Shown here: positions 14,740 through 55,177 of the stretch, one piece after another
How the letters are laid out: every line of letters starts with the position of its first letter
Position numbering within the stretch: position 1 is the first letter of the stretch
Origin: a virus
Strand: one strand, 5' to 3'
Virus record (IMG/VR): IMGVR_UViG_3300010430_000017
Location: 1-64,000 of that record
DNA length: 64,000 bases
Program-made: the position numbers and the translations under genes
The notes under the pieces: model-generated
What the model was told of the DNA's origin: nothing
Databases searched by the model: none
What the model saw: only the letters and a program-made list of their open reading frames with translations

Positions 14740-14803
14740 TTGACATTACGATCTGTTTGTAATAGAATCCCCTTATGGAAATCCATTTGGGGATTTTTGT
14801 TTT
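14740..14803 (+). terminator. Intrinsic terminator overlapping a sigma70 promoter
   Basis: TTGACA-17-TAGAAT; hairpin AATCCCC..ATGG/CCAT..GGGGATT followed by a T-run. Confidence 0.75.
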
Positions 14804-46136: not shown

Positions 46137-46460
46137 CTATTTCTTGTCAAGACTATCCTTCTCCATACTCATAAAAGTCCCATCCGAGAAATCTCTATCA
46201 TCAATACTGAATATTTCTTCTTTACCACAAATAGTACATACTTTTTGTATATCATATTCGTTCCAAATCTCATCCTCGTACCCTCTTGTAGCAGGACAGG
46301 AGTAACATATTTCATCATCCCTTGTTACTCTTAAATTTTGGTTTCTCCCGATAACTGCATACCTGTATTTATGCTCACAATGGGAGTCCTCACAAGCCCC
46401 GCATTCTTCCTTTGTACTCCAAGTATCCAAACACACTTCGCATTCGTAGTAAGTTTTCAT
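46137..46460 (-). CDS. Cys-rich hypothetical protein
   Basis: CEVC and CTIC. Confidence 0.55.
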   Translation of the reverse strand: MKTYYECEVCLDTWSTKEECGACEDSHCEHKYRYAVIGRNQNLRVTRDDEICYSCPATRGYEDEIWNEYDIQKVCTICGKEEIFSIDDRDFSDGTFMSMEKDSLDKK

Positions 46461-48528: not shown

Positions 48529-49137
48529 TCATTTAAGTATTCCCCACTGTTTTGCCATTGCTTCCGCGATACCTCTAAAAAACATAGATCTTCTCTTACT
48601 TCTATCTTTCCCAGGACTCATATACCAAATTCTTTGTTGTTCTTTAAGTGGTAGAGACTGCATTTCAATGAATACATTATTTGTTCCAATAAGGTTCGGT
48701 AAATTATAATTCCATAATCCTGTTTTCTTCTTCTCAGGGTGTCCAAACATATATGGCTGAATATATTGGGAAGGCTTCTTAAGATTACTTTGTGTGGATA
48801 AAACACCCACAGGATTTTCGAAACAAACCCTGTTTCCTTTCTTCTTACATAGATTCCATAACTGTTCTGTCCATTCTATACTCTCCTGTCTCTTTTTTGT
48901 ATTAGAATAATATCTATTCCCAGCAACACACAGGTATGTGCAGGGAGGGTGGCAGATAATTAAGTCATAGAACCCATCTTCTGTATTTTCTAAGATTTCC
49001 ACTACATCGTGCATTATATGGTCGCCGTAAAGCGACTCACTTGGTAAAATATCACAACTTATGGCATAATGGCCTTCTCGGATAAATTCATCCCTTACTA
49101 TCCCAGAATACTCACACCCAACAAAAACCCTCATCAA
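48529..49137 (-). CDS. Phage DNA cytosine-methyltransferase-like protein
   Basis: VGCEYSG.VR, SCDILP, HPPCTYL, ENPVG and GIAEAMA.QWG. Confidence 0.75.
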   Translation of the reverse strand: MMRVFVGCEYSGIVRDEFIREGHYAISCDILPSESLYGDHIMHDVVEILENTEDGFYDLIICHPPCTYLCVAGNRYYSNTKKRQESIEWTEQLWNLCKKKGNRVCFENPVGVLSTQSNLKKPSQYIQPYMFGHPEKKKTGLWNYNLPNLIGTNNVFIEMQSLPLKEQQRIWYMSPGKDRSKRRSMFFRGIAEAMAKQWGILK

Positions 49138-49691
49138 ATACTCCTAATATGAATAGGTGCAGTAACACCACTACAAAGACCAATAGAAGCTTCCAGGGCT
49201 TTTGTTATTGTACTTTCGGGATCAATAATTTCTTGGTTATTATAAATATGATGCAGAACACCATAAGCATAGGAACTCCCGGAACCAATTGCGTAGTACG
49301 GTTCTGTTGTCTCGACTACTTGGAAAGCTGGATCAATTAGAAATAGTCTTCCATGAATTCCGACAAGATAATTATCGGAATGTTCTTCTACTCCGAGATC
49401 ATTAGCTGAATAACCGCATTGCTTAAACAAATCCATGAGGTTAATACTGAATGTTCTGCACATATAATTCTCAAGAGTTTGTTTCTCTGTATCAAATACA
49501 GGAAGCCAGTCATCAACATGCTTCATTAACTGACTTCCTCTGATCATACCAGCGTATCCGACAAGCATTTGATCATTGAGTTTAATTACCTTGGGTCCAG
49601 TGAGTTTTCTTTCAAGATCCCCGAAAGTAGCACAGCTGTCTGATCCGAAGTACGTCTTGTTCTTGTGTTTCAAAGCAATCACGCAGGTCAT
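49134..49691 (-). CDS. HslV/proteasome-like Ntn hydrolase
   Basis: N-terminal Thr (MTCVIA), GSDS, K and AIGSGS.YA.G. Confidence 0.8.
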   Translation of the reverse strand: MTCVIALKHKNKTYFGSDSCATFGDLERKLTGPKVIKLNDQMLVGYAGMIRGSQLMKHVDDWLPVFDTEKQTLENYMCRTFSINLMDLFKQCGYSANDLGVEEHSDNYLVGIHGRLFLIDPAFQVVETTEPYYAIGSGSSYAYGVLHHIYNNQEIIDPESTITKALEASIGLCSGVTAPIHIRSI

Positions 49692-51753: not shown

Positions 51754-51945
51754 TTATCGGACTTCCTCGAAAGCAATGCCCTTGTAATAAAGCTTCTTCA
51801 TTTGTTGATAGAATGTGCGTCTATCCCCGCACTCAATTGCTCCAGTAGAAATTCCTTTCCTGGTTTGTGTTGTGTATTGCTTATCCTTTGGGGAATAGTC
51901 TTTGTATACAGCTTTCTTAATTCTTTTGGCTTTGGATTGTCTCAT
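51754..51945 (-). CDS. Small basic hypothetical protein
   Basis: MRQSKAKRIKK...R..YQ..KK. Confidence 0.5.
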   Translation of the reverse strand: MRQSKAKRIKKAVYKDYSPKDKQYTTQTRKGISTGAIECGDRRTFYQQMKKLYYKGIAFEEVR

Positions 51946-52163
51946 TATTCCTCCTCAAAGTAATGCTTAATATTCTCAGTATCAATCTCAAAATCACTCA
52001 ACTCAAGAGTTGCACACTGATGACAAAGTGTTGGGGAATCATACCCCTGTGACTCCCATAAATCATCAGCTTTCTTTTCGAAGTCTTCTTCATTCTTTGC
52101 AAGAACACTACCAATACACGTAAACCCGTACGTTTTAATATAGACTGGTATCTCTTTTGCCAT
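51945..52163 (-). CDS. Hypothetical protein
   Basis: Coupled ORF. Confidence 0.5.
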   Translation of the reverse strand: MAKEIPVYIKTYGFTCIGSVLAKNEEDFEKKADDLWESQGYDSPTLCHQCATLELSDFEIDTENIKHYFEEE

Positions 52164-52705
52164 TATTCCTCCTGTTTAAAATTACCATAATATAGTCGTT
52201 TTTTATCTTCTTTATTAAGATCTCGTAAAAACCACGCATATCTTGTATTATCAAGATAGGGATTATCTATTACATTAAAACCAGAAATAATTGTATATTG
52301 TCCTTTTAGATTGTTAGCGAATTTCTCTACAAAATCCACACCATTAGTACAGACAATTATTCTTTTGTTGGGGATCAAAGATAAAATAAGATCTGGATCT
52401 ATATGATTCTCAAAAGCAACTTCCTCGTATCCTTGGGGGAATTTTCCAGAGTTCAAATTTAAAGGTATCCCATCCCGAGAGAACAAACCACACATTGCCC
52501 AAAAATTGGGATGATAATACAGAAAGCCAATATATTTAGCTCTCTCATTCAAAGCAAAAGTTACACCTGAACCTCGACCACTAAGAATGAACACCGGTTT
52601 GTTCATTTCTGGTTTACAATTCACAATAAGCTTTTGGAATTCTGTTAGAACTACTTGCTCTGGTCTACTCGGTTTAAAATTCATACAGTTTTTACAATCG
52701 CACAT
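52163..52705 (-). CDS. Degenerate terminase-large-subunit ATPase-like domain
   Basis: LTEFQ, SGRGSGVT, QGYEEVAFEN, RIIVCTN, DNPYL and RLYYGNF in TerL order; RBS AGGAGG before 52705. Confidence 0.6.
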   Translation of the reverse strand: MCDCKNCMNFKPSRPEQVVLTEFQKLIVNCKPEMNKPVFILSGRGSGVTFALNERAKYIGFLYYHPNFWAMCGLFSRDGIPLNLNSGKFPQGYEEVAFENHIDPDLILSLIPNKRIIVCTNGVDFVEKFANNLKGQYTIISGFNVIDNPYLDNTRYAWFLRDLNKEDKKRLYYGNFKQEE

Positions 52706-52722
52706 GATCCCTCCTAAGTTAA

Positions 52723-52813
52723 TGATTATACATCCTTGCAGCCCCTCAAGGATTAAGGTATCCACCGTCTATAGCCAGATTCGTTATTCGCAGGAGCAAC
52801 CTTTGTATAATCA
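52723..52813 (-). ncRNA. Candidate structured RNA or leader
   Basis: 10-bp closing stem TGATTATACA/TGTATAATCA with internal hairpins; own promoter TTGACA(52859)-17-TAGAAT. Confidence 0.45.
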
Positions 52814-52864
52814 AGATTCATTCTTTTTATATTCTATACTAATTGTTTGTTGTTGTCAAGGGAT

Positions 52865-55177
52865 TTATCCACATTTACTAAATCCGCACTCCTTGCAAAT
52901 CAGACATCCACCCTCATTGACATATGATGCTAAGCCGCATTCAGGACAGATTTTTCCAACAGATACTTCAGGATCTTCAATAGGAAGATACTTAGAAAGA
53001 ATCCTCTTAAGAATTCCAGCAGCATCTACCATGGAATACGTACTCTTATTTAACTGATCTATAATCTCCTCCACAGGAATCCCGTATCTAAGGGACATTG
53101 AGCATACTCTGCATAGCGAATCCCATAGACTATTACGCTCCTGGAATAGAACAGGATTAAAAGTGCCATCTCCATTATGCCCACCCTCTTTAGGTAATTT
53201 AACAAATACCTCTATTGGATTCCCTTCCTGATCAATACTTACATTAATGTAAATTTTACTTCCTTTCCAAGAAACTCTATGCCTCACTGCTGTCTCTTCA
53301 TCAAGAAGCTCTTTCTCGTATAGTTCCGGCATTACGCATTCAGCTACTTCTTCAGTATCCGTACTTGAAAGAACACCTTCCTTGCAACCATCTCGAAAAA
53401 CAGTGACACCTTTGAGACCCTTGGACCAAGCGTACTTATAAATCTCTTGGATAGTCTCCTTTTTGGTATCATTCGAAAGATTAATAGTAGAACTGATCGA
53501 GGCATCAATATTCTTCTGTAAAGCGGCTTGCACATTAATCCTATCTTTCCAATGAATCTCATTAGCTTCAACGTAGCCCATCTTGTTCTTTGCTTGCTCA
53601 AGAGTAAGTCCTTTGAATTCATCTAAGTTATCAAGCATATGCTGTGCAGCCGGGAGATGGATGAAGGAGTATTCTTTATTATCAATTCTATTCTTTCTTT
53701 TATAGGAAAACTTAAATATAGGTTCAATTCCTGACGAACAATTCCCAGAAACAATACTAATACTACCACAAGGACCAATTGTGTTGAGAGATGTATTAGC
53801 AAGACCATAATCTAAGATATTCTCTTTTAATGCACCTTCTATCTTATACCATGGGTTATCAACAAAATTATTCCTTGCTGCTGTTGAACTCATAGCCTCA
53901 CAGCATTTACCTTGGACAGCAAGATCATTGGATGCAACTAATTGTGAATACATTATAGAATCAGTGATATCATTAGCAAGATCTATGGAATCTTCATCTC
54001 CGTAAGTAAAACCTAATTTTTGACATAGATCTCCAAACCCTGTTAACTCAACACCAATCCTTTTACCAAATTTATCCACTGATCTTTGCTCAGCTAATGG
54101 GTGCAAGTCCTCATTCATATCAGAAAACAAGTTCATCAAGCGTGTAGCTACTTCTGCGTCCTCTTCTAAGGAAACAATATCAAGTCTCCCATGCAAAAGA
54201 TAAAAAGGGAGCACAAACGCGCCAAGCAGGCAGTTTGAATCTCCAGCCATGGGTTGTTCAGAACATGCATTGTATCCAAACGGCTTCAAAGATTTATCAA
54301 TATAAGTCCCAAAAGTATTTTTCTGTACTGTTGTGATGTATGAAGTTCCTGGATCTCCACAAATCCAAGCTGCCTCCGACAATTGACTCAAAACATCTCT
54401 TGCTTTGATAGTTTTATACTCTTTAAATTTACCTCCTATTTCAAACCACTCATCATAATCACCATCCCAGCAAGAGTTATATAATTCTTTATCAGCCTCT
54501 ATATCAGGAAAACAAAACGTCCAGTCCTCATCATTCTCTACAGCAGTCATAAATGAGTCAGTAAGTTTTAATGTTATATTAGCATTATTAATGGCCGGCA
54601 GTTCTTTTGTAAAAACATCTTCTTCAAAAACTTTCTCTGGCTTTGCTTTACTCCAAATAAAATCAAGTGTATCTGGGTGCCGACAATCAAGAGAGATCAG
54701 CAATGCTCCACGTCTACCAAACTGGCAGATTGTTTTAGTTAACTCAGAAAAACTTGGCATAAAACTAACAGCGCCGGATGAAGTTCTTGCTGCATTCTCT
54801 ACGGAATGTCCTTTTGGTCTTAGAATGGATATATCTGTACCAACGCCTCCTCTATAAGAGAAGGTTCTCGCAATCTGTTTATGTGCTTCATATATCCCTT
54901 CAATACTGTCATGCCTGATAGGAACATAATAGCAGTTACTAAAGCTGCTGGTTGCGCCTGAATTACAGGCACTCAGAATACTCCCAGCGGGAATGAACTT
55001 ACCACTTCTTAGAAGTTCTTTCTGATCCTTGTCCGTGATGTTACAACAATCAATAACTCCTTCAATTACATCTTTGATATCTTCATGCCCATATTTATTC
55101 TTTGTGACCATGGCCACGAAATCTTCATGCTCTGCAATACTCGTCTCCAACAACTCCTTTGTAATAACCTCAGTCAA
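52865..55177 (-). CDS. nrdJ: Class II (adenosylcobalamin-dependent) ribonucleotide reductase
   Basis: SNCY, GGVG.D.S.LRP.G, RRGAL, NACSEQ, CLLG, GPCGSIS..GIEP, SISSTIN and KGVTVFRDG; C-terminal zinc ribbon; no beta subunit nearby. Confidence 0.92.
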   Translation of the reverse strand: MTEVITKELLETSIAEHEDFVAMVTKNKYGHEDIKDVIEGVIDCCNITDKDQKELLRSGKFIPAGSILSACNSGATSSFSNCYYVPIRHDSIEGIYEAHKQIARTFSYRGGVGTDISILRPKGHSVENAARTSSGAVSFMPSFSELTKTICQFGRRGALLISLDCRHPDTLDFIWSKAKPEKVFEEDVFTKELPAINNANITLKLTDSFMTAVENDEDWTFCFPDIEADKELYNSCWDGDYDEWFEIGGKFKEYKTIKARDVLSQLSEAAWICGDPGTSYITTVQKNTFGTYIDKSLKPFGYNACSEQPMAGDSNCLLGAFVLPFYLLHGRLDIVSLEEDAEVATRLMNLFSDMNEDLHPLAEQRSVDKFGKRIGVELTGFGDLCQKLGFTYGDEDSIDLANDITDSIMYSQLVASNDLAVQGKCCEAMSSTAARNNFVDNPWYKIEGALKENILDYGLANTSLNTIGPCGSISIVSGNCSSGIEPIFKFSYKRKNRIDNKEYSFIHLPAAQHMLDNLDEFKGLTLEQAKNKMGYVEANEIHWKDRINVQAALQKNIDASISSTINLSNDTKKETIQEIYKYAWSKGLKGVTVFRDGCKEGVLSSTDTEEVAECVMPELYEKELLDEETAVRHRVSWKGSKIYINVSIDQEGNPIEVFVKLPKEGGHNGDGTFNPVLFQERNSLWDSLCRVCSMSLRYGIPVEEIIDQLNKSTYSMVDAAGILKRILSKYLPIEDPEVSVGKICPECGLASYVNEGGCLICKECGFSKCG

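Follow-up and report, generated by a model that had tools for sequence, protein, structure and literature searches.

Gene content and expression signals of the locus

The window analysed was a stretch of 64,000 nt, positions 1 to 64,000 of a virus genome that measures 82,544 bp, has direct terminal repeats and originated from marine sediment (IMG/VR record IMGVR_UViG_3300010430_000017). A block of minus-strand genes at 43.9-61.3 kb includes a nucleoside deoxyribosyltransferase-like gene, a metallophosphoesterase, a class II RNR, the gene under study (P0001) and a dUTPase, and also holds genes for a proteasome-like protein, a DNA methyltransferase, HNH endonucleases and a radical SAM protein. 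The coding sequence of P0001 (52163..52705, minus strand, stop codon included) runs from an ATG at 52705 to a TAA at 52165-52163; its 180-aa product was assigned to a stand-alone ATPase core resembling that of the terminase large subunit (TerL) on the basis of the ORF, matches to TerL profiles and the fold. An alternative upstream GTG start would extend the product to 200 aa; the Cys-rich N-terminus of the ATG form is also the start of the homologues P0004, P0014 and P0015.

Immediately upstream of P0001 lies the class II (B12-type) RNR gene (52865..55177, minus strand; Pfam Ribonuc_red_lgC, 7.8e-82). Its relatives are annotated as B12-dependent, and a search based on this RNR recovered only distant B12-type RNRs (~30 % identity), crAss-like phages being among their sources. 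A CobA-type adenosyltransferase, a partner for a B12-dependent RNR, was considered as an identity for P0001 and rejected, there being no Pfam match to one and none among the fold matches listed. On the downstream side, a 72-aa ORF (51945..52163, minus strand), the ATG of which overlaps the P0001 stop codon (TAATG), matched phrog_9642, a family of unknown function (3e-5); a tblastn search of L083, a 92.8-kb JGI contig from a related phage, gave no counterpart of this ORF.

A Shine-Dalgarno sequence, AGGAGG, was read from the sequence 4 nt 5' of the P0001 ATG (52710..52715, minus strand), and the 159 nt that separate the RNR stop codon from P0001 contain a sigma-70-like promoter, TTGACA-17-TAGAAT, that agrees with the consensus at 11 out of 12 positions (52831..52859, minus strand). 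Sites of the form TTGACA-N17-TAnnnT occur 10 times in the 82.5-kb genome, including that of P0001, and each of the 10 points in the direction of its local genes, an agreement for which the calculated chance is about one in a thousand. A loose promoter scan of the P0001 region found four sites compared with 5.7 +/- 2.2 in shuffled sequences, which is no excess. P0001 would, on these signals, be transcribed from its own sigma-70-like promoter. The stretch 51900-53000 was identical in the assemblies of two marine-sediment DNA runs, which does not amount to independent support since either run may be the source sample; no RNA run was listed as containing it.

The genome also encodes a real terL with both domains (68943-70463 of the record, plus strand), 16 kb from P0001. 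It contains the only Terminase_6C match in the genome (69840-70352 of the record, plus strand), and its product shows 43.5 % identity to rV5-like terminases across residues 4-487. A candidate gene for the small terminase lies at L001 563-937. The terL carries an in-frame TGA at codon 45, so that the full TerL is readable only through the TGA with a non-standard code; genome-wide recoding of TGA was considered and rejected, as the terL TGA was the only convincing in-frame case on the coding strands scanned. P0001 itself does not lie in a packaging or head module, its neighbours being the RNR, dUTPase, proteasome-like, methyltransferase and phosphoesterase genes. The first-pass annotation, made from the letters of the window, had placed the gene among metabolic genes far from head genes, credited it with a strong ribosome-binding site and its own promoter, and suggested that an intact terL be sought elsewhere in the genome; all of these points agreed with the features described above.

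Similarity to the ATPase domain of TerL

PHROG 979 (terminase large subunit) matched residues 124-179 of P0001 with E 6.2e-5 (8.9e-7 in the genome scan) and matched all six close family members; the phage's own TerL also belongs to phrog_979 (8.2e-151). Profile-profile comparison with hhalign, using a 15-sequence profile of the P0001 family and a 25-sequence TerL profile, aligned residues 137-180 with TerL residues 231-276 over 42 columns (96 % probability, E 3.7e-9). At a laxer setting, the alignment extended over residues 17-180 of P0001 and 3-275 of TerL (92.8 %, E 3.9e-7), with the Q motif, both Walker motifs, motif III and the C-terminal motif all collinear. P0001 shows two large deletions in this alignment, the first in the interval from Walker A to Walker B and the second removing the lid region. 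The TerL-specific C-terminal segment, residues 137-180 (52166..52297, minus strand), comprises the last strand, the DNPYL motif and a helix ending in RLYYGNF. The strong profile signal is limited to the last 42-56 residues of the protein.

A match to Terminase_6N had been anticipated in the first-pass annotation and was not obtained: Pfam searches of P0001 gave no match to PF03237 (Terminase_6N) even at E<=10 and nothing else relevant, the genome scan with PF03237 detected the real terL only, with P0001 not reaching the curated cut-off, and within the family the model detected one of the 15 members (E 0.031). Direct comparison of P0001 with the phage's own TerL by BLASTP was not significant (best E 2.6), a PDB sequence search with the family profile A1 returned nothing significant (best match FBH1, E 0.14), and NCBIfam models produced only scattered single matches to the 15 members (E>=0.025).

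The structure model built from 15 sequences (pLDDT 85) superposes on TerL ATPase domains over 152-164 residues. In Foldseek searches the highest query TM-scores were those of TerL chains (0.51-0.58), whereas the best E-value belonged to the TmcA helicase module and not to TerL. Terminase clusters made up nine of the 10 matches listed in a structure search of the ESM Atlas (TM 0.65-0.70). The predicted fold is thus of the TerL ASCE type over the whole domain. An earlier model from six sequences (pLDDT 68.9), which gave generic P-loop matches with no TerL among the matches listed, was replaced by the 15-sequence model. P0001 has no nuclease domain, the ORF ending at residue 180, and the single Terminase_6C match of the genome falls in the real terL. 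These results support the assignment of P0001 as a TerL-type ATPase core that stands alone and lacks the nuclease part.

TerL ATPase domains (PHROG 979/Terminase_6N; structures solved for Sf6 gp2, D6E, P74-26, T4 gp17 and HK97, among others) have the same order of motifs as P0001, namely the Q motif, the P-loop, the Walker B strand, motif III (TN) and a C-terminal DNP...Y...L...LxGxW, and the TerL family nearest to P0001 is that of the phage's own terminase. Compared with TerL, P0001 lacks the nuclease domain and the lid subdomain, has a shortened region between Walker A and Walker B, and is encoded in a nucleotide-metabolism block on the strand opposite to terL.

The N-terminal half of the protein also scored against helicases. 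UvrD-helicase models matched seven of the 15 members below threshold (best 6.5e-4), phrog_1967 (DNA helicase) matched five of the six close members and PhoH-like models matched three of the six. FBH1 was the top row of the VIA structure matches, with Pif1, Rep and Dda also among the matches listed, and the helicase structures aligned with P0001 over about 120 residues. The likeness to domain 1A of SF1 helicases (UvrD/Rep, FBH1, Pif1) lies in the N-terminal 60 residues, with the Q motif, GxGxGKT and following Arg. SF1 helicases possess two RecA-like domains and motifs Q and I-VI, whereas P0001 is a single 180-aa domain without a 2A domain and without motifs IV-VI. Terminase and helicase cores are akin, and the helicase-like scores of the N-terminal half were read as a reflection of this kinship; P0001 was assigned to TerL rather than to the helicases because its C-terminal third is TerL-specific.

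Motifs and predicted catalytic competence

The motifs of P0001 occur in the order LTEFQ (residues 20-24), SGRGSGVT (42-49), QGYEEVAFEN (91-100), RIIVCTN (115-121), DNPYL (147-151) and RLYYGNF (170-176). The degenerate P-loop GRGSGVT, residues 43-49 (52559..52579, minus strand), departs from the canonical Walker A GxxxxGK[ST] in that codon 48 is GTA (Val) at the position of the Walker A Lys. The Walker B-like strand EVAFEN, residues 95-100 (52406..52423, minus strand), reads VAFEN where the canonical form is hhhhDE with both acidic residues; in the hhalign alignment F98 faces the Walker B Asp of TerL (D130) and E99 faces the catalytic Glu (E131).

Across the family the Walker A Lys was kept, in the form GxGxGK[ST], by 10 of the 15 aligned members, P0004 among them, the remaining five having V, T, V, T or S at this position. 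Gln24 and the P-loop residues Gly43 and Gly47 were invariant in the 15-member alignment, the residue after the Lys position was Ser or Thr in every member, and position 99 was Glu or Asp in all 15, with the next residue acidic in only one. The invariant TerL residue R54, which follows Walker A, faces no Arg in the P0001 family in the extended alignment. As judged from these alignments, the family as a whole is without part of the TerL catalytic set, namely one Walker B acidic residue and the Arg after Walker A. P0001 additionally has Val in place of the Walker A Lys, and is therefore almost certainly unable to hydrolyse ATP, given what is generally known of P-loop enzymes.

The six TerL N-domain motifs listed in the first-pass annotation, the K-to-V change in Walker A and the absence of the nuclease domain were all found as described, and the proposed likeness to TerL was recovered at the profile and structure levels. 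The K-to-V change is a feature of P0001, however, and does not extend to the family, in which two-thirds of the members keep the Lys. The Walker B-like strand was said to lack DE; the Asp position is indeed occupied by F98, whereas E99 lines up with the catalytic Glu.

In the phylogenetic tree of the family, only two of the 12 inner branches were well supported. The best tree requires four losses of the Lys; independent losses are not claimed here, because the supported branches permit a single loss. The four most divergent members without the Lys lie on long branches (2.2-4.9).

Distribution and conservation of the family

The family is rare. Twelve representatives, one of them spurious, were found at E<=1e-3 among 1.84 billion, and a word-indexed search of 5.8 billion clusters found five homologues with 51-56 % identity. 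P0016 (1009 aa, E 3.3e-6) was dropped as a family member since it is a tandem-repeat protein, and P0015, a 90-aa fragment in which the Lys is present, was left out of the family alignment A2. The family is unnamed and known from metagenomes only, mostly as single-member clusters in the source databases. A tblastn search of P0001 against 50,697 deposited phage records gave none at E<=0.01, and a scan of IMG/VR viral contigs with the A1 pattern gave 75 matches, none of which was a relative. In all, 15 relatives with intact ORFs and 26-57 % identity were available, and the branch length of P0001 equalled the family median.

A second genomic context was provided by L083, in which the homologue P0010 follows a class II RNR after a 134-aa ORF and is followed by a dUTPase. 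In both of the readable phage contexts, a gene of the P0001 type therefore follows closely on a class II RNR gene, which is weak evidence for a link with the RNR because the two phages are related. A complex prediction for the RNR with P0001 gave scores of 0.00 and 0.00, classed as 'no answer', and is evidence neither for nor against an interaction. The L083 phage probably has a full-length TerL too (P0042).

Only six of the 26 ORFs compared between the window and L083 had a match, P0001 being among these six. Identity was 47 % for P0001 (with P0010), 56 % for the RNR and 46 % for the dUTPase, and the corresponding dN values were 0.46, 0.40 and 0.50. The dN of P0001 is hence in the range of its two metabolic neighbours, in keeping with a gene under constraint. 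A comparison of dN/dS among homologues had been suggested in the first-pass annotation; the ratio itself is only indicative because dS is near or past saturation, being about 1.75 (near saturation) for P0001 and undefined for the RNR and the dUTPase. The same annotation had named two findings that would overturn its view, namely a lack of structural similarity to TerL or homologues decaying as pseudogenes; the predicted fold is TerL-like and the homologues are intact at the identities given above. P0001 is a conserved gene and is probably expressed.

Comparison with known stand-alone terminase-like proteins

Stand-alone terminase-like proteins, exemplified by T4 vs.8 and Ksap2, have only just been noticed, as triggers of Avs2. 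Evans et al. (2026) report that the ATPase domain alone activates EcAvs2 for five out of five terminases, that all Upx homologues tested were also activated, and that EcAvs2 touches the ATP in the terminase active site via a bridging ATP (PMC13601566). The uncharacterised protein vs.8, which is homologous to the T4 terminase ATPase domain, was toxic together with EcAvs2, and vs.8 and Ksap1/2 are described there as activating Avs2 and not as blocking it (PMC13601566). The Discussion of the same article raises the possibility that the non-terminase activators of Avs2 are anti-defence proteins and treats their role in the phage as an open question (PMC13601566). According to Bechon et al. (2024), KpAvs2 is triggered by Ksap2 (Bas60_220) of Stephanstirmvirinae, a small protein whose structure weakly resembles that of the D6E TerL ATPase (PMC11564622).

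Like P0001, vs.8 (PHROG 1488) is a small (219 aa) stand-alone protein with terminase-ATPase similarity, encoded outside the packaging module, in this case in an early-gene neighbourhood that includes tk, denV and a GrcA-like gene; as with the P0001 family, it is reported to be confined to one phage lineage (PMC13601566). No homology between the two was detected by hhalign (4 % for the P0001 family against vs.8), and P0001 had no match to phrog_1488, which detected vs.8 itself at 1.3e-78. The two also resemble terminases in different ways. T4 vs.8 matches T4-type TerL (phrog_2, 1.7e-5) via its Walker A/B region, whereas the P0001 family matches rV5-type TerL via its C-terminus, and vs.8 is reported to keep both Walker motifs (PMC13601566), whereas the catalytic residues of the P0001 family are degenerate.

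Ksap2 shares with P0001 a position directly downstream of the gene for an RNR catalytic subunit, lying between nrdA and nrdB in Bas60. Ksap2 matches came from 80 phage records; 30 of these were listed, and most of the 30 have an RNR small-subunit annotation at the site of the match. In contrast to P0001, Ksap2 has 111 aa and no P-loop. In hhalign comparisons an 11-sequence Ksap2 alignment scored 0.8 % against the P0001 family and 0.6 % against TerL, and comparison of the Bas60 RNR region with the window gave one faint match from 26 ORFs, indicating that the modules are not homologous. Since both the genes and the modules are unrelated, the position after the RNR that Ksap2 and P0001 have in common is a resemblance without clear meaning. 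The analogy of P0001 with vs.8 and Ksap2 is likewise one of fold and not of descent, because no homology was found when they were compared by sequence profile. The P0001 family is apparently an independent case of a stand-alone TerL-like protein, from another TerL lineage.

Possible function of P0001 and alternative explanations

The reading that best fits these observations, to which a probability of about 0.55 was given, is that P0001 is a TerL-derived binding protein that would be visible to terminase sensors. It most likely descends from the TerL lineage to which the phage's own terminase belongs (PHROG 979, rV5-like). Since then it would have shed the nuclease domain, together with the lid subdomain (TerL residues about 165-228) and some 45 residues of the stretch linking Walker A to Walker B. 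Consensus sites suggest expression from its own promoter inside the minus-strand nucleotide-metabolism block, directly after the class II RNR. The protein would act by binding and not as a motor, with the retained Q-motif Gln, P-loop glycines, Thr49, Glu99 and TerL-like C-terminal helix providing a TerL-like surface or pocket for a partner. By analogy with vs.8 and Ksap2, it may belong to a type of accessory protein that is visible to Avs2 and Upx, and loss of the Lys would weaken ATP-dependent recognition if P0001's own job needs no hydrolysis. The family may nevertheless consist of working NTPases with P0001 as the exception, since 10 of the 15 members keep the Walker A Lys.

The first-pass annotation had favoured an anti-defence decoy or an inhibitor of packaging by competing phages or satellites. 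In the first case the protein would absorb Avs or Upx sensors of TerL and leave them inactive; in the second it would act as a poison subunit. A TerL-like fold without motor function, a position among early or middle genes, apart from the late ones and with its own promoter, and the retention of pocket residues in a family of which one-third lacks the Lys, as would be expected of a binder, all fit such a role, and an anti-defence role for non-terminase activators of Avs2 was raised by Evans et al. themselves (PMC13601566). However, the TerL ATPase domain on its own, vs.8 and Ksap1/2 all activate their sensors (PMC13601566 and PMC11564622), so that a TerL-shaped early protein would be a liability and not a shield. 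Moreover, the known anti-Avs proteins that were found, the ORF55 ligase and the DprA-like ORF83, are not TerL mimics (10.1101/2025.06.06.658234), and no TerL-mimic decoy was found in the literature searched. A decoy or packaging inhibitor is consequently regarded as unlikely. It is somewhat less improbable that P0001 is a small accessory protein of the helicase type, or another nucleotide-binding P-loop protein, with a role in DNA or nucleotide metabolism such as one linked to the RNR or to replication, its TerL-like tail being convergent or ancestral. The UvrD, phrog_1967 and PhoH-like matches and the FBH1, Pif1, Rep and Dda structures are in keeping with this, as is the location after the RNR in both readable contexts among the dUTPase and other nucleotide enzymes, and Ksap2 too comes right after an RNR large-subunit gene and adjoins or overlaps the small-subunit gene in most of the 30 out of 80 records listed. 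All the helicase matches, however, fall below curated thresholds and are confined to the ~120 residues at the N-terminus. A second RecA-like domain is absent, and the helicase motifs are limited to Q, I, II and III, whereas TerL was the only match with E < 1e-6; the Lys is absent from one-third of the members, and the linkage to the RNR comes from two related phages. This explanation is therefore considered doubtful.

Duplication of the 5' half of terL followed by decay could also have given rise to P0001, which would then have no function of its own in the source phage. The loss of the Walker A Lys in P0001, the rarity of the family and the long branches of its four most divergent Lys-less members would be accounted for in this way. 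Such decay sits poorly with an intact ORF equipped with a ribosome-binding site and promoter, with 47 % identity between phages in which 20 of the 26 compared ORFs had no match, with a dN like those of the RNR and dUTPase (at a dS near saturation), with a branch length at the family median, and with the invariant Gln24 and P-loop glycines, and it is judged very improbable. A TerL-like match outside the packaging module is not necessarily a broken terminase, which is of relevance to the annotation of phage genomes.

A bolder reading was given little chance of being correct. It holds that there is a class of TerL-core accessory proteins encoded beside RNR genes, with a role in anti-defence or in packaging control, that escapes sensors by discarding the Walker A Lys, and that repeated loss of this residue (5/15 members) is the trace of an arms race; discarding the Lys would confer escape because Avs2-type sensors read the ATP-loaded TerL active site. 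The real terminase, in such an arms race, cannot discard its Walker A Lys. The P0001 family offers natural variants with and without the Walker A Lys and a position after the RNR in two phages, and its Lys-bearing and Lys-less members provide a ready comparison both for the need for ATP and for the reading of a nucleotide-loaded pocket by sensors.

Short terminase-like proteins and the N-terminus of P0001

Several ESM Atlas clusters of proteins of 224-258 aa (feature-list rows 2, 6, 9 and 22; structure-list rows 2 and 4) carried the Terminase_6N domain in 78-98 % of their members. Short proteins that possess only Terminase_6N may be commoner than the literature suggests; alternatively, the proteins in these clusters may represent fragments or split terminases. 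In P0001, the stand-alone TerL-like ATPase core, residues 1-7 form a CxCxxC cysteine cluster (window 52685-52705, - strand), which was also found in the 90-aa fragment P0015 and in partial form in the homologues P0004, P0009 and P0014; the other members were without it. The cluster lies in a low-confidence part of the predicted structure and may be a small metal-binding knuckle.

Ribonucleotide reductase neighbourhoods

On the related phage contig L083, an ORF of 134 aa (L083:9453-9857) lies between the ribonucleotide reductase (RNR) gene and the P0001 homologue and overlaps the RNR stop codon; its sequence suggests an insert of the homing-endonuclease type. The published Avs2 trigger Ksap2 of phage Bas60 is encoded between the genes for the RNR alpha and beta subunits (L085:19605-19940; MZ501100.1, 124604-124939). 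Matches to Ksap2 came from 80 phage records; for most of the 30 that were listed, an RNR small-subunit gene was annotated beneath the match. A methyltransferase gene and one for a putative proteasome component are present in this region of Bas60 and in the window alike, but homology of the modules was not detectable. The proteasome/HslV-like protein of the window (49134-49691, - strand; Pfam Proteasome, 3e-11) had a counterpart in L083 with 29 % identity.

In-frame TGA codon in terL and candidate promoters

Codon 45 of the phage's own terL, outside the window, is an in-frame TGA (L001:1642-1644, corresponding to genome positions 69075-69077) that lies directly 3' of the Walker A motif. The alignment to rV5-like terminases (residues 4-487) continued uninterrupted over this codon. 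At this position, cysteine was found in six of the 24 aligned TerL proteins, including the four closest relatives, and aspartate in the remaining 18. The base following the TGA is C (TGA-C), and a hairpin 3' of it was not significant (z -1.6). Scanning of the coding strands revealed no further convincing in-frame TGA.

A pattern scan of the genome for TTGACA-N17-TAnnnT identified sites at window positions 14740, 21694, 25337, 29691 and 33144 on the + strand and at 46150, 49776, 52859, 61376 and 61789 on the - strand. All 10 were co-oriented with the local genes, three shared the -10 hexamer TAGAAT, and the 10 sites look like a single promoter set.
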